This document shows positions 1 through 24,049 of a stretch of DNA of 64,000 nucleotides, in pieces. The stretch is from a virus (lineage: Duplodnaviria; Caudoviricetes). The translations under genes were made by a program, and so were the position numbers. The notes under the pieces are model-generated. The model saw only the letters and a program-made list of their open reading frames with translations. It did no database searches and was not told the DNA's origin. How positions within the stretch are numbered: position 1 is the stretch's first letter; each line of letters starts with the position of its first letter. The stretch spans positions 1 through 64,000 of the IMG/VR virus record IMGVR_UViG_3300028048_000059, one strand, 5' to 3'.

Positions 1-45
1 GGTTTCGGTGTCAATGACGAGGATGTAGTTAATGCGCTTGTCCAT
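1..45 (-). CDS. DEDD-family 3'-5' exonuclease, N-terminus only (runs off window)
   Basis: Reads MDKRINYILVIDTET after the conserved leader and RBS. The ExoI-type motif matches VVDTET of the 5327..6322 paralog. Confidence 0.65.
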   Translation of the reverse strand, partial: MDKRINYILVIDTET

Positions 46-185
46 GCGGTTTCCTTTCTGGTTTGTAGTGTTTTCCTTCACTTCATTGATTTAATTGTAT
101 CACAAAGGTGGAGGATAGTCAAGTTAAGATATGATTAAATTATCGCCCGGCCCAAATTTTAACTTGGATTTAACTGAAAAAAGGG

Positions 186-214
186 TTGACAAACAAGGGA
201 ATTTTTGGTATACT
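186..214 (+). promoter_or_regulatory. sigmaA/sigma70-type promoter (one example of the many in the cassette region)
   Basis: TTGACA-N17-TATACT with TG extended -10. Confidence 0.85.
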
Positions 215-263
215 ATTTCCAGAAGCCAAGGAAAAGGCTAAAACACCAGAAAGGGTTTTGATT

Positions 264-590
264 ATGGCTATGAACATGAATGAGATTCGCACCACCGCTC
301 GCCAGATGACCATTGCCGCGCTGATGGACGCGCTGACCGCCAACGATGCCGTCAAGTTTGATGATGCGTCTTTCGCTATCTTGCAGACGGTCGGAGAGCA
401 GGAAGTTTGGACGGAAGTCACCATTAAGTCCAAGTCGTGGAAGGACACCAAGACTTCTAAGGCGTTTGACCCGTATGAGGCCGCGGAAGCTTGGGAAGCG
501 GAGAAGAAGATCAAGGAAGCCGACAAGGCTGCTAAGGCTGCGGAAAAGGCTAAGAAGGTAGCCAAGGCAAAGGAGAAGGAAGGGGAGTAA
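264..590 (+). CDS. Hypothetical protein with Lys/Ala/Glu-rich tail (paralog family A)
   Basis: ATG after AGAAAGG. C-terminus KAAKAAEKAKKVAKAKEKEGE resembles 4247..4579. Confidence 0.8.
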   Translation: MAMNMNEIRTTARQMTIAALMDALTANDAVKFDDASFAILQTVGEQEVWTEVTIKSKSWKDTKTSKAFDPYEAAEAWEAEKKIKEADKAAKAAEKAKKVAKAKEKEGE

Positions 591-667
591 TCCCCTTCTT
601 TTTTTGTTTTGGGATGTTAAAATTGAGTTAAATTTTGGGCCGGCCAAATTCTTAATGGGTTTTTAAC

Positions 668-696
668 TTGACAATTGGTGGCGGCTTTGGTATAAT
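668..696 (+). promoter_or_regulatory. sigmaA-type promoter abutting a palindromic site
   Basis: TTAAC|TTGACA-N17-TATAAT. Confidence 0.9.
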
Positions 697-726
697 ATTA
701 GTGAAATCAAGGGGAGGTACAAGAGA

Positions 727-1086
727 ATGCGTGAAATGGTTATTTATGTGGCGTTTGATGGTGAAGAGTTTAACAATGCAGAGCGTTGTCGTGAGTATGA
801 ACAAGCATTTTCTAATTCACTTATGAAGATAAAAGAAGCCTACACTTTTTATAATTCGAAGGGCGACATTATTCCCATTGCCACTTACGATATGGAAACC
901 ATGCTCGAAGATTTAGAAGCTGCATATCAAGAAAGCGCGAAGATTGTTGTGCGGCACAATGTCCCGCATAGAACTCTTAAATATTTTTATGATACAACGG
1001 GAATCCCGTTGCCGGAAGATGCTGGGATATATAGATATGATTTTAAGAGATATACGTGGGAAAGCGTGTCAGAATATGATTTTTAA
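727..1086 (+). CDS. Hypothetical phage protein
   Basis: GGAGG RBS, own promoter, terminator hairpin AAAGCGTGTC/GACACGCTTT at ~1101-1124. Confidence 0.85.
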   Translation: MREMVIYVAFDGEEFNNAERCREYEQAFSNSLMKIKEAYTFYNSKGDIIPIATYDMETMLEDLEAAYQESAKIVVRHNVPHRTLKYFYDTTGIPLPEDAGIYRYDFKRYTWESVSEYDF

Positions 1087-1196
1087 TAGATATGTGTGGA
1101 AAGCGTGTCAGAATGACACGCTTTAATTTTTTGTTAAAATTTGGGCCGGCGGATAATTTAACATAGCGATAACAAAAGAAAAACCGCCATTGGCGG

Positions 1197-1358
1197 TTAA
1201 TCTACCTTGGCGGTTTTCCGTATGGCGGTAAGCTGCTCAGGAGTAAAGTTGTTATAATATTCGCGTCCTTTATCGCTCAAATAATCCCAATCAATCAGAC
1301 CTACGCTGTAAAGCGCCGCCTCGAACATTTCATAATCCATAATAAAGCGCTCGTTCAT
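1197..1358 (-). CDS. Hypothetical 53-aa protein (not in ORF track)
   Basis: AAGGAG RBS, MNERFIMDYEMFEAALYSVG..., followed by a terminator. Confidence 0.65.
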   Translation of the reverse strand: MNERFIMDYEMFEAALYSVGLIDWDYLSDKGREYYNNFTPEQLTAIRKTAKVD

Positions 1359-1373
1359 AGTTACTTTCTCCTT

Positions 1374-1601
1374 TCAACGTCCTTCTACTCTTTTGTACGC
1401 GCTGACCTGCCTGTATTCGAAGTATTCCTGTGCAGTGATTTCCTTGCCCGAAATCATAAGACGAGTGTGCTTCACCGAGGGCATACGTCGTGCCATGTCG
1501 CAAGCGTCCAACAGATTTTTTGCCTTGAAAGCAAACTTGATTTCCGTGCCGTGACCGGTTCCGCAGTGACCTCTGTGACAAGTTACCATGTAATACTTCA
1601 T
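1374..1601 (-). CDS. Hypothetical basic protein (CHRGHCG motif)
   Basis: GGGAG RBS, own promoter at ~1634-1662. Confidence 0.8.
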   Translation of the reverse strand: MKYYMVTCHRGHCGTGHGTEIKFAFKAKNLLDACDMARRMPSVKHTRLMISGKEITAQEYFEYRQVSAYKRVEGR

Positions 1602-1739
1602 TGTTTTGTACTCCCTTCCTTGTTTGTGAGATTATTATATCATGGGAATGGGATTGTGTCAAGTTAAGAGTACGTTAAGATACCGGCCGGCCCGAAATTT
1701 AACATGGAGATAACAAAAGAAAAAATCGCCTTGCGGCGA

Positions 1740-1931
1740 TTAGTCTTTGTCTTTATGATTGATACCCTTGAAGAGCGGGGGCACGCACCAATAAAGGCCG
1801 TAGAAGATGAAGAAATTGAAGGTTGGAAGATTGAACTCAGGCGCAATGGCGTTGTAAACAAGAGTGGCGACACCTGCAAGGATAGCCTTGACATAAGCGG
1901 CGGCAAACAGATCGACGAGAGCGTCCTTCAT
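1740..1931 (-). CDS. Small membrane protein
   Basis: Two hydrophobic segments, coupled to the upstream gene, terminator follows. Confidence 0.6.
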   Translation of the reverse strand: MKDALVDLFAAAYVKAILAGVATLVYNAIAPEFNLPTFNFFIFYGLYWCVPPLFKGINHKDKD

Positions 1932-1933
1932 GA

Positions 1934-2200
1934 TTATTCCAATCCCCTTTCAATAATCCATGCTTCGAAGTCTTTACATACTTGGTCCCAAAATGGCAGT
2001 TCTACTGGACGTCTATAATCAAGCGCTTCTTGTAACCATGTATATACACATGCTTTGCAAATTTCGGTGACTGACGGCAGTGGCTCGTCGTTTTCTTGTG
2101 CCTCGTCATACATTCCTTCTTTATGATAGAGATAATCTTTGAAGATATCATCAAAATTAATTTTGACAATGATAGAATATTCATTTATATTCTGCATCAT
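1934..2200 (-). CDS. Hypothetical acidic protein
   Basis: CCAGAAAGG RBS element upstream of ATG 2200. Confidence 0.7.
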   Translation of the reverse strand: MMQNINEYSIIVKINFDDIFKDYLYHKEGMYDEAQENDEPLPSVTEICKACVYTWLQEALDYRRPVELPFWDQVCKDFEAWIIERGLE

Positions 2201-2236
2201 AAATCCATGTCCTTTCTGGTGTTGGCTCCCATACAC

Positions 2237-2620
2237 TTACACCCGAAGGGTGTAAGTGCTGGCATTGCGACCGTTGAGATGACGTTCGACTTCATCCTTC
2301 ATCTCATGCAGAAGGACATACTGCACGCGCTGGGTAGGTTCACCCATGGCGTCCGCAAGTTCCTTGACGGTGATACCATTCGGCATACCATTGAACTTGG
2401 CGAAAGTGTCACGCACACGAGGAAGGAAAACTTCCATTTCCTTGGCGCGGGCAATCGCACGCTTTTCCTTGTTGGCAGAATTGCGGCGAGCCGCCTTTTC
2501 CTCGGTAACTACCTGCGACTTGGCAAGCTGGTCACGAATCTTGGCAATGGTGGTGAGGACTTCCGTGTCGGTCGTGTCGAAGTGTTCAAGGACGTAGTTC
2601 AGAGCATCAATTCGGGTCAT
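2237..2620 (-). CDS. Putative winged-helix DNA-binding protein (paralog family B)
   Basis: Coiled coil followed by TVKELADAMGEPTQRVQYVL...ASTYT. Similar to 7530..7859. Confidence 0.65.
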   Translation of the reverse strand: MTRIDALNYVLEHFDTTDTEVLTTIAKIRDQLAKSQVVTEEKAARRNSANKEKRAIARAKEMEVFLPRVRDTFAKFNGMPNGITVKELADAMGEPTQRVQYVLLHEMKDEVERHLNGRNASTYTLRV

Positions 2621-2889
2621 AGCGTTTTCCTCTCTGGTTTTTAGGACTTGTTCCTTGTCCTTTTGTGCCTTTATTATACCACCGATTTTTGTTTCTGTCA
2701 AGGGGTTTGAGTGTTAATTTTTTATTTGGCGTGAGGTGGTGAGCGCCTAATTCTCTTGCCCCTTGACGTATATAATTATATCAGAAGATGTGAGAGTTGT
2801 CAACCATTTTCTATGTAAAGTTTTGGTTAAATTGTGGGCCGGCGCATAACTTAACATAGTTATAATAAAAAAAGAACGCTTGCGCGTTC

Positions 2890-3195
2890 TTAGTAGTCCT
2901 CGCCGCCATAGGGGAACATATACGAGAGGTCATAAGATTCATCGACATAACAACCGCTGTATGGGTCGTAATTGGATTCATCGACATCATCATTAATGTC
3001 GTCTTCATCGGGATCTTCTTCTACGCTATCAATGCCTTGTTCATTGCAGAAGTCCTGAAACAGTTCACGGGTGATGGCATTGACCCAATCGGCATTGTAA
3101 TCATCGGGATTGCACCAAGTTCCAATAGCGCGGCACAGAGTGTAAGCCATGGCGGTCATGATGTCACGAGCAGAAGTTTCAGTGATGGTACGCAT
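2890..3195 (-). CDS. Hypothetical protein with strongly acidic C-terminus
   Basis: Leader and RBS present. Contains EEDPDEDDINDDVDESNYD. Confidence 0.8.
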   Translation of the reverse strand: MRTITETSARDIMTAMAYTLCRAIGTWCNPDDYNADWVNAITRELFQDFCNEQGIDSVEEDPDEDDINDDVDESNYDPYSGCYVDESYDLSYMFPYGGEDY

Positions 3196-3389
3196 GTTAG
3201 TTGCCTTTCTGGTTTGGAAGTGTTTTCCTTCACTTGTTGAGATAAGTATATCATATGGTGTATGTTTTGTCAAGTTAAGAATTTGTGACGCATAATTTCG
3301 CCGCAAGTTTATCCAACCATTATTTGCGGTTTGTCATTGTGGTATCATAATTGTGTGTTATACTATGCTTGAAAGCGAGGGGAACGAAG

Positions 3390-3518
3390 ATGAAAAAAAT
3401 CGCTGAGTTTGTGACTGTTGTTTACTTGATGGCTGGTCTGTTTTCGATTCTGTTGGGGCAGGGCGTTTGGATGGCGGTTTCGGGTGTTGCGGTTGGACTG
3501 TTGGTTATTTGCTCCTGA
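3390..3518 (+). CDS. 42-aa two-helix membrane peptide (not in ORF track)
   Basis: GAGGGG RBS, MKKIAEFVTVVYLMAGLFSILLGQGVWMAVSGVAVGLLVICS. Confidence 0.55.
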   Translation: MKKIAEFVTVVYLMAGLFSILLGQGVWMAVSGVAVGLLVICS

Positions 3519-3628
3519 TGTTAAAGCCGAGTTAAAATCTCGGCCGGCGCGATTCTTAACCATCTTTTAACTTGCATTCTGGCTGAATTGTGGTATAATA
3601 TTCGTAGATGAAGGAAGGAGAGATTCGA

Positions 3629-4159
3629 ATGGATAAGACGATGATTGATGCGGCACGCGATTTGATGAAACAGTTGCTTCCTGAAATCGCTGACATCATG
3701 GACGACATTTGCGAATTGGGACAGTTTTTTGATAAGTATAACTATGAGCATGGCACTGATTATGATGTGCAGTGCGGTAGCGCGCGGATGTGTCTTGTGT
3801 GCGATACTTTCGTCATTAAGTGGGATTATGATTTGACGAGTGTGGACGAAATTGGTGGATGTTGGGATGAGTGCGTGGCATATCAGACGATTAAAGATAG
3901 CCCGTTCGCGTATTTGTTCGCAGAAGCGGTTATGTTTAAGATTGGATGGAATGACTTTGAAGTCATGCCGCGAATTAAGAATGTTGGCTACAAGCCTACT
4001 GCCATTGCGACTTGGTTGACTAATGATGAGTTTCGTTTTGTGACTGATGTTACAAGCGATTTGCATAGTTATAACTGGGGTGTTGTGAATAACAAGCCTT
4101 GCATTATTGACTATGCACTTACGGAAGATGTGCGCGATAGGGCAAGCACCGATTGGTGA
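3629..4159 (+). CDS. Minimal protein-kinase-like fold protein (paralog family C)
   Basis: Motifs GSAR, VIK, E, DLHSYNWG, IIDYA. Own promoter at 3572-3599. Confidence 0.65.
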   Translation: MDKTMIDAARDLMKQLLPEIADIMDDICELGQFFDKYNYEHGTDYDVQCGSARMCLVCDTFVIKWDYDLTSVDEIGGCWDECVAYQTIKDSPFAYLFAEAVMFKIGWNDFEVMPRIKNVGYKPTAIATWLTNDEFRFVTDVTSDLHSYNWGVVNNKPCIIDYALTEDVRDRASTDW

Positions 4160-4246
4160 CTTGCCCTTAGTTAAATATCGGTTAAATTTTGGGCCGGCCG
4201 ATTTTTTAACTTAAATTTAACATGAGAAATAAAAAAAGAAAAGGGG

Positions 4247-4579
4247 TCACTCCCCCTTTTCCTTTTCCTTGGCCTCGCGCGCGGCCTTGTCCTTGGCGGC
4301 TTTCTCCGCACGCTTTGCGGCGGCCTCGGCCTTCTTGGCCTGCTTGCCGTTGTAGTCCGCGACCTCGGCGGCCATGAGTTCCTCGGCAGTCATATCCTCG
4401 CGCTCCTGCGCTACGATGACACCGACACGCGCGTAGCGCTTGTTTCCGTTGATGTCGGTGACGATGACGCCATACTGACGGTCATTGATTTTCTGGAATC
4501 CTTCGATGTTGGCAATGTCGAGAGTGGAGAAAACGGCGGTACGGATAGTGGAATCGACGATAGACTGAGAGTTCTTCAT
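4247..4579 (-). CDS. Hypothetical protein with Lys/Ala/Glu-rich tail (family A)
   Basis: Leader and RBS, tail KAEAAAKRAEKAAKDKAAREAKEKEKGE. Confidence 0.85.
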   Translation of the reverse strand: MKNSQSIVDSTIRTAVFSTLDIANIEGFQKINDRQYGVIVTDINGNKRYARVGVIVAQEREDMTAEELMAAEVADYNGKQAKKAEAAAKRAEKAAKDKAAREAKEKEKGE

Positions 4580-4676
4580 GTGGCGTGCCTTTCTGGTTTG
4601 TGAGGTTTTCCTTCCTCTGTTGTGTATTCATTATAGCATCTTTGTGCTGTAATGTCAAGTTAAGAGTTTGTTAAAG

Positions 4677-4803
4677 GGGAGTGGTGAGTTCTAACCATTC
4701 TTCGCTAATCCATCCAACAGGTTCCACCCTCTGCGTTTGTACGACTTATGCGCCATCACGTACTCGCCTTCGGCTCCGCTTGTGGGTTTCTGTCCCTTCA
4801 ACG
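4677..4803 (-). ncRNA. Candidate structured small RNA
   Basis: Own promoter TTGACA-N17-TAGAAT (4808-4836), no convincing ORF, nested stems ACCC/GGGU, GCG/CGC, GCC/GGC, GUACG/CGUAC. Confidence 0.45.
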
Positions 4804-4944
4804 TTTTTATTCTATCATGGAATCTTGTTTTTGTCAAGTTAAGAATGCGTTAAGATTTGGGCCGGTGGGCTTTTTAACTTGTGCTTAATAAAAAGAAAGA
4901 AGGTGTTGGCCTTCTTCTTTTATTTGATATGATTCCTTTATGAA

Positions 4945-5166
4945 TTATTCATACCAATATATATCAACATCCTCATCGGGATTTATTCCAATCTGTGTAT
5001 AGACAAAATCACCTAAATTATATCTATCAAGAATGTCCCAATCTGCGGCCGTCCTGCTATCTTCGTCTTTTTCCCATGCGGAGAAAAATGCTTTCCATTC
5101 GCCAGAATCTGGAATATTGAATTCACGAGTTTCGTAGATATGATAGCCGAGTTTGATGGTCTTCAT
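4945..5166 (-). CDS. Small acidic hypothetical protein
   Basis: Leader, RBS and own promoter. Confidence 0.8.
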   Translation of the reverse strand: MKTIKLGYHIYETREFNIPDSGEWKAFFSAWEKDEDSRTAADWDILDRYNLGDFVYTQIGINPDEDVDIYWYE

Positions 5167-5326
5167 GTTGCAGTTCCTTTCTGGTTTGAAGGGTTTCCTT
5201 CCCTTTGTTGTAATGTTATTATAGCACGGAAAGCGCTGTGTGTCAAGTTAAAAATCAGTAAAATTCTTGGCCGGCCCATTTTTTAACACAAAAATAACAT
5301 AACAAAAGAGCGCCCGAAGGCGCTCA

Positions 5327-6322
5327 TTAGTATTCGCAATTCCAACCACAGTAGGCCGCTAATTCATTAAGGCGATTCATCACGCTAACAACATATTTCG
5401 TCCTGTCCTCTTTGCTATCGATATACCGTGCCATTGCTTCATACACCGCGCGGCATTCGTCAAAATCGGGAACCTTGCGCCGCTGGCAGAAGTCGTAAGT
5501 AGTTCCCAAATCCCTAAAAGGAAAATACTTAATTCCCATGGTAATCGCGTGACGGTTTGCAATCTTGGACAAAATGAAAGTCTCAATAGTTGCGTCATCA
5601 AGCGCCGTGTGACTTTCGATAAAATCATACTTGTCGCACAAATATCTGTACGTGCTTTCCGCACTGGTCTTAAAGAATGTGCCGGAATTGGTGAACATGT
5701 CATAAGAAATACAATTCTTCTTATAGGACGCATTGTTCAACAGATGGGTAGTTGCAAGTCCCCACAAATCGAACAGAGGATAGCGCTTGCCGCGGAACAT
5801 AAAACCGTCATTATCGAATTCGTTCTTATTTTCCCGAGGCCCATTTACTATGATATTGTAGCAAAGATTGCGCTGCATTTTCTCCCACTCAAAATAATCC
5901 TTGCTATACAGTTTACGGATATACAGTTCCGTAAAGGGGATTGCTTTCTTAAAGTCGAACATAGAATTAAATGCGCCCACGCCATCAATATTTTCAATAT
6001 CGTGCAACCAAATATTCATGACTTCATTCCACGGCTTCACAGTAATTTCGCCGCGTTCAATCATATCAAGATAGATGGGACGCTTTTCTGCATAATATGC
6101 AGTATTGAACACAGACGGCACAGAGAACGTTTCCGCAATAAGAAACTGTTTCTTCTCATAGATATTACCCGCGCGGTCACAGATAGTATAGCCGAAGTCG
6201 TACACAAGAGGACGCGCGATAGCAATCTTCTTTTTGCGTTCAGAATCGCCATTTGCAAGTTCATTCGCAAAAGGCAGAGTGGCGGTTTCGGTGTCAACTA
6301 CACAGTACAGTTTCTTCTTCAT
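5327..6322 (-). CDS. DEDDh 3'-5' exonuclease (DnaQ-like)
   Basis: ExoI VVDTET, ExoII AFNSMFD, ExoIII HTALDD. Confidence 0.85.
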   Translation of the reverse strand: MKKKLYCVVDTETATLPFANELANGDSERKKKIAIARPLVYDFGYTICDRAGNIYEKKQFLIAETFSVPSVFNTAYYAEKRPIYLDMIERGEITVKPWNEVMNIWLHDIENIDGVGAFNSMFDFKKAIPFTELYIRKLYSKDYFEWEKMQRNLCYNIIVNGPRENKNEFDNDGFMFRGKRYPLFDLWGLATTHLLNNASYKKNCISYDMFTNSGTFFKTSAESTYRYLCDKYDFIESHTALDDATIETFILSKIANRHAITMGIKYFPFRDLGTTYDFCQRRKVPDFDECRAVYEAMARYIDSKEDRTKYVVSVMNRLNELAAYCGWNCEY

Positions 6323-6480
6323 TGTTTAATTCCCTTCTGGTTTGTCGAGTGTTTTCCTTCACTTGATGGATACATTATAGCACATTCCGCATCAATATGC
6401 AAGTTAAGAGTTGGTTAAATTTGCGGCCGGCCATAAATTTAACATAAAAATAACGACCATTGTTGTGGTCGTTATTTCTA

Positions 6481-6678
6481 TCAGTACACCGCGACGATTT
6501 CCACTTCATACTCTTCATTGTCATCGGTGATGAAAATGTAAGAGTAATCGTCTTCATCAATGATGGTGCGAATGCCAAAGCCAAGGTAGCCACCAACCGC
6601 GTTGCGTGCTTCTTTCAGAGTTTCGTAAGAGCCATGGACGCCATTCTCGAAGTAATCAGACCGAAGTGCGAAAGTCAT
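6481..6678 (-). CDS. Small acidic hypothetical protein (family D)
   Basis: GAGGAG RBS. SDYF...YETLKEA is shared with 6825..7037. Confidence 0.75.
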   Translation of the reverse strand: MTFALRSDYFENGVHGSYETLKEARNAVGGYLGFGIRTIIDEDDYSYIFITDDNEEYEVEIVAVY

Positions 6679-6824
6679 TTGCTTTTCTCCTCTCGTTGCT
6701 TTCTGGATATATTATAACGCTATTGGTGCGGGGTGTCAAGTTAAATGAAGGTTAAGATCTGGGCCGGCCGCTTTCTTTACGCAAATTTAACATAGAATGT
6801 AAAAGTAAAGACGCTTTCGCGCCT

Positions 6825-7037
6825 TTACCATCCTCGTCTGTCAATGTAGAAGTGGAACTCCTTTTTCAGACACGTGTCGTAGAGCGTCCACACGTCATCG
6901 GATTCCTGCCACAGCCCCGTGATTTCTGGGAACTGGTTGCAGAACTTGAAAATTCCGAGTTCTGCGTCTTCCAGAGTGTGATATACCTCAAAGAACGGAG
7001 AATCATCGAAGTAGTCAGAAGTGACGATGTACAGCAT
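6825..7037 (-). CDS. Small acidic hypothetical protein (family D)
   Basis: Leader and RBS, SDYF...YHTLEDA. Confidence 0.75.
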   Translation of the reverse strand: MLYIVTSDYFDDSPFFEVYHTLEDAELGIFKFCNQFPEITGLWQESDDVWTLYDTCLKKEFHFYIDRRGW

Positions 7038-7134
7038 GGTGTTGCCTTTCTGGTTTTAGAGCGTTCTTCCTTCGCTTGTTGGATATATTGTAACACACAA
7101 TGACATGATTGTCAAGAGTGTGGGATGTTAAAAA

Positions 7135-7398
7135 TTAGCTGTTTGCCACTGCGCACCTGGCAGCGGTAGGTTGCTATCCTAAGCGGTTATTACGTGTCTC
7201 TCTCACTCTCACGGATTTTTGTTCTAATGGGAGTTTTCTCTCCCCGCCCACTTTTCTTGTCTTGGTTGTGGTCGTTGCTGTCTACCTCACCCACCCAGCA
7301 GGATGGTTCCCCTCACGCTCACGCGGGTGACGCGGGCTTTTTTTAGGTGGGCTACCATACGCCTTGCGGCGGCCCTTTGAAGTGTTTCCCCACTTGAC
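7135..7398 (-). ncRNA. Candidate structured ncRNA (~260 nt)
   Basis: Own promoter (-35 at ~7428-7433) abutting a palindromic site. No ORF with an RBS. Multiple hairpins including CGCC-GCAA-GGCG. Confidence 0.55.
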
Positions 7399-7529
7399 GT
7401 ATATATAATATCATAGATTTGGCGATAAGTCAAGTTAAATATATGTAAAAATTTGGGCCGGCCGCATTTTTAACCTAAATTTAACATGCAATGTAAAAAA
7501 AGAAAAGCGCCCTCGGGCGCTTTCTTTTT

Positions 7530-7859
7530 TTACAGTCGCGTGTAGGTGTTGACCTTCTGGTCACGATTCGTCTTGACCTTATCGGCAAGCGCAGTGCGCA
7601 GAAGGTAGTTAAGCTTGGACTGGGAGAACCCTTCCGGCAGTTCCGCTTCGCAAGCGGCGAACAGTTCCTTGGAAGTCTGCGGCTCATCAGTCAGCGCCGC
7701 AAGCACAGTCGGGATCGCGGACTCATACAGCGCCGCGTTCGCCCGCGCCTTTTCGGTAAGCTTCGCCTGTTCCGCTTCCAGTTCAGTCAGCAGAGCGGCA
7801 GTGTCAACGTCAGCGCCATGCAGGTAGGAAATCATGGTTTCGAGAGTGGACTTCTTCAT
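7530..7859 (-). CDS. Putative winged-helix DNA-binding protein (family B)
   Basis: TSKELFAAC...SQSKLNYLL...VNTYT, leader and RBS. Confidence 0.7.
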   Translation of the reverse strand: MKKSTLETMISYLHGADVDTAALLTELEAEQAKLTEKARANAALYESAIPTVLAALTDEPQTSKELFAACEAELPEGFSQSKLNYLLRTALADKVKTNRDQKVNTYTRL

Positions 7860-7998
7860 AGGGCAAAATTCCTTTCTGGTTTTTAAGTGTTTCCCTTCAC
7901 TTGATGTATATATTATATCAGAAGTTCTGTCAGTTGTCAACTATTTTTTGTGTAAAGATTCAGTTAAATTCGCGGCCGGCCGGGTTTTTAACCCGGTC

Positions 7999-8235
7999 TT
8001 AATAGTCCTCGTCGATAGTAGTGCGCTCAATGCACCATATACCATTATCGGCATAGAACGTGTACATTCCAATCTCTGGCTCGATGTTACTGTCTTTGAT
8101 ATGACAGTTGTCATCTACAAGCATACGGCACATTACTGCCGTGGCTTTCTCCATAGAGGAAAATGCGCCAATGATTTGATAACAAAAATCATTCTGTCCC
8201 GTGCCATCGCCCATGCTCAAAATGTAAATGGTCAT
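7999..8235 (-). CDS. Small hypothetical protein
   Basis: AAGGAG RBS, own promoter. Confidence 0.75.
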   Translation of the reverse strand: MTIYILSMGDGTGQNDFCYQIIGAFSSMEKATAVMCRMLVDDNCHIKDSNIEPEIGMYTFYADNGIWCIERTTIDEDY

Positions 8236-8342
8236 ATTGAATATCTCCTTTCCTTTGTTCAAGAACATTATACCATAGAGAATGTTTGTTGTCAAGTTAA
8301 GAATGGGTAAAGTTTTGGGCCGGCCAACTTCTTTACAAGAAA

Positions 8343-8552
8343 TTAACCATATTCATCGAAATCAGATTCAAATGCCTCTTCAAAATCGTCCCATGTCTCA
8401 TAATGGAAATTGAAATCATCGCATTCTTCAATAGGATTTGAAATGCAACAATTTCCCCATTTGTTGATATAAGGACAATCAAATGCCTGTACGGGGCAAC
8501 GAATCGGGTGTCCGTTGTGGAACCCATTGGTTTCTTCAATTCGTTCAATCAT
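8343..8552 (-). CDS. Small Cys-rich acidic protein
   Basis: GGAGG RBS, CP..DCPY...CC...EC. Confidence 0.7.
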   Translation of the reverse strand: MIERIEETNGFHNGHPIRCPVQAFDCPYINKWGNCCISNPIEECDDFNFHYETWDDFEEAFESDFDEYG

Positions 8553-8694
8553 AATCAAATGCCCTCCCTTTGTGCTTTGTACGTGGATTCTTCTTCTTGT
8601 TCGGAATAATCTTCGTCGTAGGATTAATGGTGCCCCAATCGCCGCGCATCTTCTTGATGGTTTCATAAGTGGTGTTCTGGGGTTTGTTAGCCAT
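8545..8694 (-). CDS. 49-aa basic protein
   Basis: AAGGAGG RBS, own promoter. Confidence 0.7.
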   Translation of the reverse strand: MANKPQNTTYETIKKMRGDWGTINPTTKIIPNKKKNPRTKHKGRAFDYD

Positions 8695-8861
8695 GGTCTG
8701 CACCTCCTTGCTTTGTGTATATATTATATCAAACAATATGTGAGAAGTCAAGTTAAATATGGGTTAAAATGTGGGCCGGCCCTAATTTTAACATATGTTT
8801 AACTTGCAAATGAAATGCCAATGTAGTATAATAGTGGTGAAAGAAAGGAAGGGGTAACATT

Positions 8862-9386
8862 ATGAGAAGCAATTACGTAGAGCGTGCTGAGAAGTTCATG
8901 AAGTCGTTTGTTCGAAACTATGGGCATCCGTTTGGCTGTAAAAATATTGCAGAAGTGCGTGATATGGTTGAACGTTATAATGCTGCACATAAACGTATAC
9001 ATGTATCATACAGTTATGGTGTTAGTCGTTGTACGCTCATTCTGTCGGATTATGTCATTAAATGGGATTATGATGCTGAGAACGTCATGGAATGGGGCGG
9101 CTGCAAAAATGAGATGAAAATATACGCAAAAGCTTGCAAAATGGGTCTTCATAATGTGTTGGCACCAATTACAAGAATTAAAGTGTATGGACGTTTTTAT
9201 TATGTAATGCCGCGTTGCACTCGTACCGCATTTGGAGATAAGCATCATGATTTAACTTATTACATTGGAGAAGCACAAATGTGGGGATTGCATAATAGAC
9301 TACATCTTATTGATTTACACTGTGAAAACTGGGGGTTTCTGCATGGGCAAGCGACAGTCTTTGATTATGCGGCGTGTTGCGAATGA
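8862..9386 (+). CDS. Minimal protein-kinase-like fold protein (family C)
   Basis: Motifs GVSR, VIKWDY, E, DLHCENWG, VFDYA. Promoter at 8804-8832. Confidence 0.65.
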   Translation: MRSNYVERAEKFMKSFVRNYGHPFGCKNIAEVRDMVERYNAAHKRIHVSYSYGVSRCTLILSDYVIKWDYDAENVMEWGGCKNEMKIYAKACKMGLHNVLAPITRIKVYGRFYYVMPRCTRTAFGDKHHDLTYYIGEAQMWGLHNRLHLIDLHCENWGFLHGQATVFDYAACCE

Positions 9387-9477
9387 ATAACGGGGCGAAA
9401 TGCCCCGTTAATTATGGGTTAAAATAAAGGCCGGCCGCATTTTTAACATACATTTAACATTAAAATGAAAAAGAGGA

Positions 9478-9885
9478 TTATTCATCCTCTTTCTCATAAA
9501 TCATAGCGTCAAGTCCTTCGCTATTCAGTTTCTTAACAACCTTACGTGCGGCCGCCTTACGTTCTTTTTCCTTCTGCTTGCGGTCGCGTTCTTCCTGCCG
9601 CGCCTTTTTCTTTTCTTCATCAAGCGCGACGTCTTCCGCGTAGGCATCTGCGGCGGCATAGCCATCGTACGGAATGAACGTGCCATCAGAGCGGGAACCG
9701 CGCGGAATACTAATTTTAATCAGTGCAAACTTTTCGTTGCCATCTGCATCCAGTACCGGCATCATCAGTTCGCTTGCGCTAACCGGCTTTACATCCGTGT
9801 CGTAGTCATTGCTAAGTACTTGCTGAATGTGTGCAATAATCTGCATACGAAGCGCGCCATCCAAAGAAGCCTTACTCATATCCAT
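9478..9885 (-). CDS. Hypothetical protein with charged tail (family A)
   Basis: Leader and RBS. DADGNEKFA resembles DINGNKRYA of 4247; PYDGYAAA resembles FDPYEAA of 264. Confidence 0.8.
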   Translation of the reverse strand: MDMSKASLDGALRMQIIAHIQQVLSNDYDTDVKPVSASELMMPVLDADGNEKFALIKISIPRGSRSDGTFIPYDGYAAADAYAEDVALDEEKKKARQEERDRKQKEKERKAAARKVVKKLNSEGLDAMIYEKEDE

Positions 9886-10021
9886 TCCCTCTCTGGTTTT
9901 AAGATGTTTTCCTTCATCTATCGTAGATAATTATAGCATAACTTCTATAAGAAGTCAAGTAAAATCTATGTTAAAAATTGGACCGGCCATGTTTTTAACA
10001 TGACCTTAACACCCGAGGAAC

Positions 10022-10342
10022 TTAAAGCAGTTGGGGCATTTCTCCTGTGAGAAGTGCGGCAACCATTTCACTTGGCGTGCAATGTGTCACGTCGTCGCCG
10101 TCCCACGGCATACGATACGATTCAACGTGTCCATGCTCAACACCATAAGAACCTCTGTGACAGATTACATCGCCATCTGGGTAATCTGGGAACGTCCACT
10201 TCCATCCATCAAGGCAATGCTCAATCGTGAAGGGGATGCCTTGTTCAATCAGTTGGCGGCAGAACGACTGGGTGGTGGCTTGGATCTGGTTCTTCATAGC
10301 AATCTCATATGCATTCCTGTTTTCCATGTTTTTCAGTCCCAT
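10022..10342 (-). CDS. Hypothetical phage protein
   Basis: AGGAGG RBS, own promoter. Confidence 0.75.
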   Translation of the reverse strand: MGLKNMENRNAYEIAMKNQIQATTQSFCRQLIEQGIPFTIEHCLDGWKWTFPDYPDGDVICHRGSYGVEHGHVESYRMPWDGDDVTHCTPSEMVAALLTGEMPQLL

Positions 10343-10469
10343 CTCATATGTCCTCCTGTTTTTTACTATAATCATTATAGCACAATTTATATCGGGAGTC
10401 AAGTTAAATACTCGTTAAGAAATCGTCCGGCCGCAATTTTAACATAAAATTAATAGCCCTTGCGGGCTA

Positions 10470-10907
10470 TTACAGATTGTACAGTTCGCTCATAATGTGA
10501 TTGGGATGGAACGCGGAACCCGGCCAATTCTCACGGTTTGCCCTACTATCGTCAAACAACAGGTCGGTTTTCTGTGCGTTGCACACAAGTCCCTTGTCCT
10601 TGCCGTACTCAACAATCTTAATGAAATCCCACTCCACGCTGTGAAGGTGCTGCCGCAACCATTTTTCTTTGGCTTTGCGTACTTCATCATTGTAGCTTGC
10701 CGAGCCATTCATTGAGGTCCAACTAATGATACCGAGCTTGTAGCCAGCTTTCTGCAACTTGTTGAGCTTGCGCGCGAGCAGGCTCATATTCAGCATAGGG
10801 GCAGCTTCCAGGTAGGGCCAGACCTCTTCCGCCTGCAATCCGTCAAGCCAGTTTGGAACTGTAAAGAGAGAGGCGATAGTACCGTCCATGTCAAACCAAA
10901 TCGTCAT
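10470..10907 (-). CDS. HAD-superfamily phosphatase (5'(3')-nucleotidase-like)
   Basis: Motif I FDMDGT, motif II ISWT, K, motif IV LFDD. Confidence 0.8.
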   Translation of the reverse strand: MTIWFDMDGTIASLFTVPNWLDGLQAEEVWPYLEAAPMLNMSLLARKLNKLQKAGYKLGIISWTSMNGSASYNDEVRKAKEKWLRQHLHSVEWDFIKIVEYGKDKGLVCNAQKTDLLFDDSRANRENWPGSAFHPNHIMSELYNL

Positions 10908-22726: not shown

Positions 22727-22744
22727 ATAGAAGAGGTGAGGAAT

Positions 22745-24049
22745 ATGAAAAAATCCTATTCCCTCGATTACTCCATCGAACGCGATGTAGATCGTCTACA
22801 CGCAATTGAAGACATACTTGATAAGTTACCAACCACCCCAACTCCAAACGAGTTGGAACAAATGGCATCATACATATTGTATGGCAAGGATGAAGAGGGA
22901 AAAAACGCAGTACAACGAGGAGAAACAACCGACGGCGACAAGCGCTACAAATCGTTTGCCCGCACCGAAGACAAAAATCTTTCCCTCGATGAAATACTTG
23001 ATAATCCGTTGGCAGACCAAACAAACTTGCGGCCCGCCACAGAACGTTACATTTATACAAAGAAAAAAACCGACATCACACGACCCAAAGGCGACGACCC
23101 AGGCGATTCCATCATACCAGGAATGCAACAACTGTGGGACCGCATTGATTATTTGGAGCATGTGGTTGCCGTCAACGAAGGCCGCGCACCAGCCGACCCA
23201 TCCGTCACCATCCTACGTGACAACTACCGCCTCTATCAATTGAAACACATGCTCATCGATTTGCGGCGCGAACAATATTATTTGAAGGATTCATGGAATC
23301 CACCAATTCATTTTCTCGCAGTAACACCGCCCAAACCCCAAACCTACAACTGGGATCAAGATACGGCCTACTGGTTAACGGAAGAACAATGGCGCGCCAA
23401 ATTGGCGGCTTCCTACTACCCCTACGACCGCGACATTTCTCACTACAAAACCAAGGTCGATTCCGACGGCACCACTTGGGTGCGGTGGGTAGTGCGGCGC
23501 CACCATTTCGATTGGGAAAACCCAGTCCACATTCATGCGCTCATTGATCATTACAGCAATATTTATATGCAGGTGTATGATAAGATGGATAGCTGGGGCC
23601 GCACCCTTATTTATGATTTCGACAGATATTTTGATATGTGTCACTTTTCTCCCTTGCGCGAATACGTGTTAACCTTACGTATAGATCGTATGACTTGCGC
23701 GCAAATTGCAGTTGCCGTTAAAGAGAAATTTGGCATTGATTATACGGAAAACTACATTAGCACAATTTTAGCAAAAGAAATTCCAAGAACCATGGCGGCC
23801 GTCGTAAAAAAGCATAGATTGCTCTTAGAGACACCACCTCAACACCGGAAGGCATGTCCACGTTGTGGCCGCATCCTTCCACTCGACCCGCTATTTTTTG
23901 GGCGCAACAAAAACCGCAAAACCGGCTATGCTAGCGCTTGTAAAGATTGCGAAAAATTAAGACGTATACGAGGAGGTCAATCAGTTAATGATCGAAGAAG
24001 TAAAGACTCGGCGGTGTATGAAGTGCCGCAAGGAGAAACCAGAAACTGA
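22745..24049 (+). CDS. Hypothetical DNA-binding protein (HTH-like plus C-terminal zinc ribbon)
   Basis: CPRC...CKDC and an HTH-like MTCAQIAVAVKEKFG segment. Precedes the terminase genes. Confidence 0.6.
   Translation: MKKSYSLDYSIERDVDRLHAIEDILDKLPTTPTPNELEQMASYILYGKDEEGKNAVQRGETTDGDKRYKSFARTEDKNLSLDEILDNPLADQTNLRPATERYIYTKKKTDITRPKGDDPGDSIIPGMQQLWDRIDYLEHVVAVNEGRAPADPSVTILRDNYRLYQLKHMLIDLRREQYYLKDSWNPPIHFLAVTPPKPQTYNWDQDTAYWLTEEQWRAKLAASYYPYDRDISHYKTKVDSDGTTWVRWVVRRHHFDWENPVHIHALIDHYSNIYMQVYDKMDSWGRTLIYDFDRYFDMCHFSPLREYVLTLRIDRMTCAQIAVAVKEKFGIDYTENYISTILAKEIPRTMAAVVKKHRLLLETPPQHRKACPRCGRILPLDPLFFGRNKNRKTGYASACKDCEKLRRIRGGQSVNDRRSKDSAVYEVPQGETRN

Follow-up and report, generated by a model that had tools for sequence, protein, structure and literature searches.

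Among the described systems of phage gene control, the closest to the element treated here are the hairpins in the 5' untranslated region (5'UTR) of phage anti-defence operons, which lie immediately after the transcription start site (TSS), some 20 nt ahead of the start codon, and are bound by the helix-turn-helix (HTH) proteins Aca1 and Aca2 (PMC13551039). Their role is the translational repression of early or anti-defence genes; Aca1 and Aca2 have several target operons, the RNA motifs also occur between genes, and in the models of both proteins it is the duplex of the RNA stem that is read, in much the same way as DNA (PMC13551039). This article concerns a hairpin-plus-box leader motif that occurs ten times in the first 10 kb of a 64,000-nt stretch of phage DNA, called the window throughout. 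The window is the first 64 kb of the IMG/VR virus record IMGVR_UViG_3300028048_000059, a linear sequence of 157,489 bp with a CheckV completeness of 91%. The motif joins a short hairpin, whose conserved loop begins AAGGA, to a conserved box that contains the Shine-Dalgarno (SD) sequence of the gene behind it. Phage T4 offers two further points of reference. Its RegA protein controls a regulon of early mRNAs at the ribosome-binding site, through sites that are unstructured and overlap the AUG, and its gene 43 operator, a single autoregulatory site, has a 5-bp stem and an 8-nt loop next to the SD. Judged from its letters and its placement, the motif is a previously undescribed family of a known kind, namely a cis-regulatory hairpin at a phage ribosome-binding site, and we tentatively read it as a translational operator.

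The ten leaders lie between positions 50 and 9928 and follow one common design: a sigma-70-type TTGACA-N17-TATAAT-like promoter, about 9-12 nt, a stem of 4-5 bp, a loop starting AAGG(A/G), 1-5 nt, the box AAACCAGAAAGG, 5-11 nt, and the ATG. A sequence-only reading of the window had proposed this arrangement of hairpin, box and ribosome-binding site, and the leaders do stand where it placed them, with all of its quoted stems (AGUG/CACU, AGCC/GGCU, AGGAC/GUCCU, GAGG/CCUC, AAGGG/CCCUU, AGCG/CGCU and AGAUG/CAUCU) correct. Scanned as AACCAGAAAGG with at most one mismatch, the box is found at 53, 244 (+), 2629, 3204, 4588, 5176, 6332, 7045, 7871 and 9888, and an eleventh time at 2211-2221. These 11 matches in 64 kb, all within the first 10 kb, compare with 1.09 expected, and none of 100 shuffles reaches 11. 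A covariance model, R1, was built from an alignment of the ten leaders (A1) and searched with filters off; it scores the leaders at 47.4-63.4 bits, against 15.4 bits for the next site in the window. The rest of the 157,489-bp genome holds a single further strong match, at 156735-156777, which is a near-copy of leader 1 at the other contig end, so the earlier remark that the motif is not seen beyond about 10 kb holds.

Between the -10 box and the ATG lie 44-52 nt in the motif leaders and 28-34 nt in the remaining cassettes of the array, whose promoters are of the same type. The extra length is the hairpin, of a weak predicted stability (-2.7 to -6.0 kcal/mol). The shorter leaders are predicted to be unstructured and carry SDs of the AAGGAGG type, which bears out the claim that the motif marks a subclass of cassettes. 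In predicted folds of the motif leaders the SD is unpaired, and the hairpin would start 2-7 nt from the 5' end, the transcription start being placed from promoter geometry. Mini-ORFs (short open reading frames) occur upstream in a few leaders and are not conserved.

The sequence-only reading had staked itself beforehand on covariation in a larger alignment, and covariation is found. In 132 distinct rows from IMG/VR loci, which represent independent DNA, 88.7% of stem cells are paired, against 65.1% in 500 shuffles, and 139 stem cells are changed on both sides, against 42.4; none of the 500 shuffles reaches the observed values. When the 3' partner is slid by 1-3 columns, pairing falls to 18-53%.

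The anatomy of the motif was studied in a gapless analysis of 254 distinct copies, with a filter that imposed CCAG and at most two box mismatches. These copies hold 38 different four-base stem types. The stem is 4 bp long in 160 copies, 5 in 62, 3 in 24 and 6 in 8. The loop of 7-9 nt opens with AAGG(A/G) in all tabulated variants and is then A-rich (AAGGAAAA 191 copies, AAGGACA 14, AAGGAAA 10, AAGGGAAA 8, AAGGAACAA 7); no AAGGAG(G) loop is found among these variants, though AAGGAGG is the usual SD of neighbouring cassettes. After a gap of 1-5 nt comes the box, in which all twelve positions are near-invariant, an invariance partly imposed by the filter, between spacers that vary on both sides. 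Variant boxes, such as AAACCGAAAGGAG and AAACCCACGAGAGAAAGG, retain AAACC and GAAAGG. The GG of the box is followed by A in 57% of copies, by G in 31% and by C or T in 12%. There are also box-like ribosome-binding sites that lack the hairpin. In viral loci including L032, L044 and L106, rare leaders keep an architecture of hairpin, AAAC and GAGAAAGG with the non-GGA loops AACGACA and AGCCGAA, and some of them precede homologues of the protein family named A below. A second group of contigs from Clostridia metagenome-assembled genomes (MAGs), of a different promoter style, bears the motif behind a longer leader that starts with another hairpin, the loop of which is GAGGGAA or GAAGGGAA (for example CACAAGGUUGAGGGAAGCAGCCAAGACCUU). 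These loci are L133 3772-3942, L145 1344-1370, L162 7056-7082, L117 4997-5023, L123 2002-2027 and L215, and the GAGGGAA-type hairpin may be a second conserved leader element.

The position of the motif is set by the start codon. The GG of the box lies mostly 7-10 nt, and the end of the hairpin about 20-25 nt, before it. The distance from the -10 box to the hairpin is mostly 9-14 nt, with a range of 2-38 nt; in about 11% of copies there is no promoter nearby, 16 copies are without any -10 box, and at several loci the motif follows a stop codon, between genes, or stands behind a longer leader. Since the spacing to the start codon is fixed and the distance to the -10 box variable, it is to the start codon, and not to the promoter, that the hairpin is tied. 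Because this spacing also holds in promoterless and intergenic copies, the motif is a module of the ribosome-binding region. Pairing with the 3' tail of 16S ribosomal RNA (rRNA) was calculated with a Bacillus-type sequence: the box pairs at -7.9 to -10.4 kcal/mol, against -5.6 kcal/mol with an E. coli-type tail, and the loop alone at -4.7 kcal/mol. From these energies, AGAAAGG is the SD, fitted to the very 3' end of 16S rRNA of the Bacillota type. The AAACC of the box cannot pair with the tail, and anti-SD pairing covers only AGAAAGG.

The motif extends well beyond this genome. IMG/VR was scanned with an exact pattern (AAGGAAAA, 6-12 nt, AACCAGARAGG); at least 116 stretches matched, and at least 70 contigs are represented among the first 80 of them listed. 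Among the matches listed, at least three contiguous pairs flank the loop in 186 of the 194 viral instances that lie far enough from a locus end to be scored. The same pattern in bacterial genome contigs, an internal control, has stem lengths mostly of 0-1, as expected by chance. Applied to the loci of the matches listed, model R1 finds 281 copies in 790 kb. The strand of the motif is always the sense strand of the downstream gene. The earlier view of a strand-specific, covarying leader motif at the RNA level is supported. Real matches among bacterial assemblies all fall in Clostridia MAGs, from the rumen, sheep, goat, roe deer, rabbit and human gut. In five such MAGs the motif is clustered on a few phage-like contigs (in one of them, 43 matches on six contigs) and not spread across host genes; it therefore belongs to a phage clade and not to host leaders generally.

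No known family accounts for the motif in the databases and texts searched. Rfam 15 gives no match at gathering thresholds in the 64 kb, and of its ten weak matches (E up to 5) in positions 1-10500 none overlaps a leader. Searching the literature by the letters of the motif returned primers and unrelated sequence only. The model finds no motif in the two regions searched around exonuclease homologues, in Enterococcus phage H1 and in MT835855.1. A PyrR-type site was considered from a likeness of the box to the PyrR-binding CCAGAGAGG; the Rfam search gave no PyrR match, and the idea was dropped.

Behind the 254 copies lie 234 complete open reading frames (ORFs), which form 72 protein clusters. 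Four families dominate, all of them present in the window: family A with 77 ORFs, family B with 35, an exonuclease family with 23 and family C with 12, together 147 of the 234. Pfam assigns a function to none of the four. The predicted fold of family A, taken from the 7530-7859 protein, has N-terminal helices and a C-terminal winged helix (pLDDT 94.1) and matches cullin WHB, Z-alpha and Fur/MarR/ArsR domains at Z 8-9.6, all generic winged-helix folds. Family A has no match among GenBank phages, it falls in virus-only clusters of the ESM Atlas, and 107 of its 133 homologues carry the motif. In this genome it is represented by two diverged paralogues (2237-2620 and 7530-7859) with 24% identity. 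Family B also has two diverged paralogues (4247-4579 and 9478-9885), with 16% identity; its predicted fold is a small beta-sheet and then a 55-residue helix (pLDDT 88.7), with no match in the PDB. The exonuclease at 5327-6322 matches phrog_20187 and the annotated exodeoxyribonuclease of Enterococcus phage H1, and its homologues are 25-31% identical in Enterococcus phages and in Phass-1, and 46% identical in a human-faecal fragment. Two exonuclease paralogues are present in this phage and in the Enterococcus phages EF1, VRE9 and H1; in H1 (L242), a HAD-type hydrolase lies two genes upstream of one exonuclease, in a block of small genes. The exonuclease pairs of the Enterococcus phages imply that early-region gene content is shared though the leader motif is not. 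Clustering of all ORFs near motifs found no co-occurring regulator.

The reading that we favour, with a probability of roughly 40%, is that the motif is a translational operator for a trans-acting factor and would work like the Aca-bound 5'UTR hairpins. The weak hairpin of 4-6 bp presents AAGGA as the first five positions of a purine- or A-rich loop of 7-9 nt, and after 1-5 variable nucleotides comes AAACCAGAAAGG, with the SD AGAAAGG placed 7-10 nt before the AUG. In recognising the loop, whose register is fixed, a factor would come to lie beside or over the SD. One such factor could set the timing or the level of translation for the whole set, which in this genome means ten cassettes. The winged-helix protein of family A, encoded by the commonest gene behind the motif, is one candidate and would then autoregulate. 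The logic would be that of Aca1 and Aca2 on the 5'UTR hairpins of phage anti-defence operons, or that of T4 RegA. Transcription through the hairpin, the binding of a factor and the direction of its effect are what we infer here.

With its conserved loop, its stems free to vary and the conserved single strand beside them, all on a defined subset of mRNAs, the motif bears the usual signature of a protein-binding site. The fixed register of the loop, without stronger SDs, favours an operator because mere pairing with the anti-SD would also be possible in other registers and with stronger SDs, and the near-invariant box favours it because such pairing accounts for AGAAAGG only. Further support comes from the geometry tied to the start codon and from the limitation of the motif to a sharp subset of cassettes. 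With the Aca1 and Aca2 motifs the element shares a phage hairpin with a covarying stem, several operons per element and intergenic copies. It also shares the place of the hairpin, just after the TSS (a predicted start here, with mostly 9-14 nt between the -10 box and the hairpin) and some 20 nt ahead of the start codon. Family A, behind the motif in the 107 of 133 homologues given above, would be the counterpart of the small (winged) HTH protein encoded behind the Aca motifs. The element differs in four respects. The Aca motif is paired with an inverted repeat in promoter DNA, whereas the ten promoter spacers here show no operator in common; the stem is read as a duplex in the Aca model, whereas here the stems are free and the loop and single-stranded box are conserved; the Aca examples come from Pseudomonadota, whereas this phage is probably one of Bacillota; and the copy number, ten per genome, is much higher here. 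With T4 RegA and the gene 43 operator the element has in common an early-mRNA regulon at the ribosome-binding site and a short stem with a loop of about 8 nt beside the SD. Unlike the RegA sites it is structured, unlike the gene 43 operator it is multi-copy, and no RegA homologue was found in the phage genome.

Several points weigh against the operator. No gene of the CsrA, RegA, Hfq, CSD or S21 families was found in the phage genome, and seven genome-contig loci that bear the motif, but differ in the style of their leader and promoter, have neither a family A nor a family B gene within the 8 kb fetched. The winged-helix matches are generic, so the fold of family A is no proof of RNA binding. 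With variable stems and a conserved loop, recognition would have to take another form than that of Aca1 and Aca2, and the rare copies with the non-GGA loops AACGACA and AGCCGAA nevertheless retain the architecture. Finally, immediate-early genes must at first be expressed by host machinery alone, for which a factor-independent role is the simpler explanation. An extended form of the operator reading is improbable as a whole. It would describe a phage regulon akin to the iron-responsive element and iron regulatory protein (IRE/IRP) system, in which family A would read the AAGGA loop as RNA, in place of a DNA duplex, and would shut off translation of itself and of about ten immediate-early cassettes, probably for host takeover or anti-defence, with the hairpin-plus-box travelling with mobile cassettes as a plug-in control module.

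The main rival, which we consider possible if somewhat doubtful, is a factor-independent leader for ribosome loading and mRNA protection. The hairpin with its SD-like AAGGA loop would hold a 30S subunit or block 5'-to-3' decay, and initiation would be driven by the unstructured A/C-rich spacer together with an SD matched to the very 3' end of the 16S rRNA of Bacillota. There are precedents in Bacillota: in the aprE leader of B. subtilis a 5' stem-loop together with the binding of ribosomes stabilises the mRNA, and in STAB-SD (cryIIIA) and the polypurine stabiliser of phage SP82, SD-like tracts upstream of the real SD do so (PMC3997798, its references 106, 109 and 179). The present leaders resemble them in their probable Bacillota context, in joining a 5'-proximal stem-loop (by the predicted 5' end) to a ribosome-binding element, and in an SD-like purine tract that lies upstream of the real SD and is complementary to the 16S 3' end. 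They differ in that the known cases are single-gene elements without a conserved loop family, and in that some copies here lie away from 5' ends. STAB-SD is a strong SD, GAAAGGAGG, whereas the loop here is a weak, register-fixed AAGGA.

Much of the evidence already given would suit such a leader: the stronger pairing of the box with the Bacillus-type than with the E. coli-type 16S tail, the weaker pairing of the loop, the SD that is unpaired in predicted folds, and a hairpin predicted to lie 2-7 nt from the 5' end. The early genes have host-type promoters and must act before any phage protein exists. An A/C-rich sequence ahead of the SD is also present in non-motif leaders, ribosome-binding sites with the box alone exist, and no regulator was found, either in the phage, where the five families named above were searched, or in the five MAGs, which were searched for CsrA. 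Against the rival stand the fixed register of the loop, which never forms a stronger SD (AAGGAG or GGAGG), and the conservation of AAACC, which is yet unable to pair with the rRNA tail. Copies that stand between genes or follow a longer leader do not lie at a 5' terminus, and the hairpins are weak. Sister cassettes manage with short leaders and stronger SDs, so a need in this subset only is left unexplained.

The sequence-only reading had named the CsrA/RsmA target signature for the loop. According to this account, a host CsrA dimer would bridge the GGA of the loop and the SD-proximal GG(A), repressing or stabilising early mRNAs, as in B. subtilis hag, and it is very unlikely to be right. The likeness to CsrA sites, both in hag and in those from in vitro selection (SELEX), lies in the GGA within the loop of a short hairpin (stems of 3-6 bp), in the many targets, and in a second purine site at the SD, an AAGG about 20-23 nt downstream, inside the bridging range of 10-63 nt. 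SELEX hairpins also mostly have no more than 4 base pairs, and the SELEX consensus, RUACARGGAUGU, places ACA before and GU after the GGA, mostly in hexaloops (PMC7652899). Here the ACA and GU flanks are absent, the loop has 8 nt (AAGGAAAA; 7-9 overall) rather than 6, and the second site is GGA in just 57% of copies, with GG invariant. The CsrA family PF02599 was not found in the phage genome, nor in the five motif-carrying Clostridia MAGs, which are incomplete and are tied to the phage as hosts by binning only, an assignment that may be wrong. In these MAGs the motif keeps to its few phage-like contigs and does not spread over host genes. The regulatory part of the earlier reading thus divides: a post-transcriptional regulon stands as the most likely account, and CsrA or boxB as its mechanism does not.

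A lack of any present function, with a leader copied along with its cassettes and alike by descent, or a DNA-level operator or recombination site, is given hardly any weight. With 147 of the 234 downstream ORFs in four families, the motif could owe much of its spread to inheritance together with genes; the cassettes are apparently mobile, and the contig ends differ by one extra cassette. Against this, 72 unrelated protein clusters carry the motif, and it always lies on the sense strand of its gene. Compensatory stem changes beside a fixed loop and box and drifting spacers point to purifying selection on RNA structure, and variable stems are unfit for a sequence-specific DNA site.

Lambdoid boxB sites, such as those of lambda nut, are short hairpins on early transcripts with covarying stems and a conserved purine-rich loop, and they act on RNA polymerase with no tie to a start codon. 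Antitermination of the N/boxB or put kind, the alternative model of the sequence-only reading, in which RNA polymerase would receive a factor from the nascent hairpin and so read through the terminator-like hairpin that ends each cassette, can be dismissed as scarcely credible: the promoter-proximal position, the short covarying stem and the purine-rich conserved loop agree with it, but the motif includes the SD and is locked to the AUG and not to the promoter, some intergenic copies have no promoter, the loop has 7-9 nt and is not a pentaloop, alignments A1 and A2 hold no boxA-like partner and no second conserved element upstream of the hairpin, and each cassette has its own promoter, so that read-through of terminators is not needed.

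The individual leaders can now be described; all are on the minus strand except the second. Leader 1 (50-92; 53.3 bits; promoter 94-122) has the stem AGUG/CACU, the loop AAGGAAAA and the box AAACCAGAAAGG, and its gene, of the exonuclease family, starts with the ATG at 47-45 and continues past the window start. Leader 2 (214-257, plus strand; 50.4 bits; promoter 186-214), with the stem AGCC/GGCU, the loop AAGGAAAA and the box AACACCAGAAAGG, precedes a family C gene of 108 amino acids (aa) at 264-590 (+). Leader 3 (2626-2670; 52.2 bits; promoter 2673-2701) combines the stem AGGAC/GUCCU, the loop AAGGAACAA and the box AAACCAGAGAGG ahead of the first family A gene (2237-2620, 127 aa, predicted winged helix). 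The box-only ribosome-binding site, CACCAGAAAGG, at 2211-2221 (minus strand) lies between two genes of one operon, with an in-frame ATG at 2200. Upstream of it is a different, longer hairpin (about 2237-2261) that spans the preceding stop codon. The site scores 12.1 bits without an AAGGA hairpin, and the box is therefore usable without that hairpin.

Leader 4 (3201-3244; 61.0 bits; promoter 3245-3273), with the stem AAGUG/CACUU, the loop AAGGAAAA and the box AAACCAGAAAGG, serves a 101-aa gene at 2890-3195 that has no match in Pfam or PHROG. The same loop and box recur in leader 5 (4585-4627; 53.5 bits; promoter 4630-4658), where the stem is GAGG/CCUC and the gene is of family B (4247-4579, 110 aa). 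Leader 6 (5173-5215; 47.4 bits; promoter 5218-5246) has the stem AAGGG/CCCUU, the loop AAGGAAA and the box AAACCAGAAAGG, before a gene of 73 aa at 4945-5166. Leader 7 (6329-6373; 53.6 bits), with a TTGCAT...TATAAT promoter, the stem AGUG/CACU, the loop AAGGAAAA and the box AAACCAGAAGGG, belongs to the second exonuclease gene (5327-6322, 331 aa). In leader 8 (7042-7086; 60.4 bits; promoter 7087-7115) the stem is AGCG/CGCU, the loop AAGGAAGAA, the box AAACCAGAAAGG and the gene one of 70 aa at 6825-7037. Leader 9 (7868-7911; 63.4 bits; promoter 7912-7940), with the stem AAGUG/CACUU, the loop AAGGGAAA and the box AAACCAGAAAGG, stands before the other family A gene (7530-7859, 109 aa, predicted winged helix). 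Leader 10 (9885-9928; 55.9 bits; promoter 9930-9958) has the stem AGAUG/CAUCU, the loop AAGGAAAA and the box AAACCAGAGAGG, and its family B gene (9478-9885) starts with the ATG at 9885 or at 9879.

These leaders open the early region of a tailed phage. PHROG matches identify portal, virion and sigma-factor genes in the genome, and the portal is about 29% identical to those of the 130-140-kb Enterococcus phages EF1, VRE9 and H1 and to that of Phass-1, a gut phage, with weaker similarity to Lactococcus and Bacillus phages; because of these resemblances, Bacillota are the likely hosts. A megablast of window positions 1-10000 against GenBank phages found no near-identical DNA. In the first 23 kb or so, where the G+C content is 0.44-0.46 against about 0.37 elsewhere in the genome, small cassettes follow one another in an array, and each of them has a strong TTGACA-N17-TATAAT promoter. 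Palindromic GGCCGGCC sites number 55 in the genome with at most one mismatch, and most of them lie inside the array. Where the array gives way to the structural genes, positions 22736-24049 (+) encode a sigma-factor-like protein (phrog_5767, E = 9e-20), the C-terminal part of which matches an endonuclease VII PHROG.

Short inverted repeats of variable sequence lie within the 17-bp spacer of several cassette promoters (window 94-9958) and end in an extended -10 box; examples are AGCACAAAGAUGCU before the TATAAT at 4630-4658 and CTTCTTATAGAAG at 9930-9958, and relatives are alike. Three consensus promoters, at 7405-7433, 2775-2803 and 4809-4837, precede stretches without a convincing ORF (7125-7404, 2700-2775 and 4680-4810, all on the minus strand). 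The stretch under the first of them opens with an AAGUG/GGGAAA/CACUU hairpin. Its 274 nt at 7125-7398 (-) show no gain in folding over shuffles (z = -0.91), and what recurs of it in related loci is limited to short pieces. The contig ends overlap imperfectly: window 1-152 matches genome 156686-156837 at 94.8%, window 108-237 matches the last 129 nt of the genome at 98.5%, and between the matching end segments lies an extra cassette of about 520 bp with its own promoter at 157346-157374 (minus strand). This imperfect overlap around an extra cassette suggests that the genome is circularly permuted or terminally redundant and that the presence of cassettes is polymorphic in the population.

The motif is a structured RNA absent from RNA databases, with hundreds of copies and clear covariation, and it is placed on the first-expressed genes of a large uncultivated phage clade of the rumen and herbivore gut. 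It gives a handle on jointly controlled early cassettes in a region where nearly all early proteins have no assigned function, and the four families behind it are a coherent set to examine for roles in host takeover or anti-defence. If no factor exists, the motif would be a compact natural hairpin-plus-SD leader for Bacillota hosts, usable as an expression part. If a dedicated binding protein exists, the translational control of phage early and anti-defence genes by 5'UTR hairpins would extend to the phages of Bacillota, with the loop read instead of the stem.

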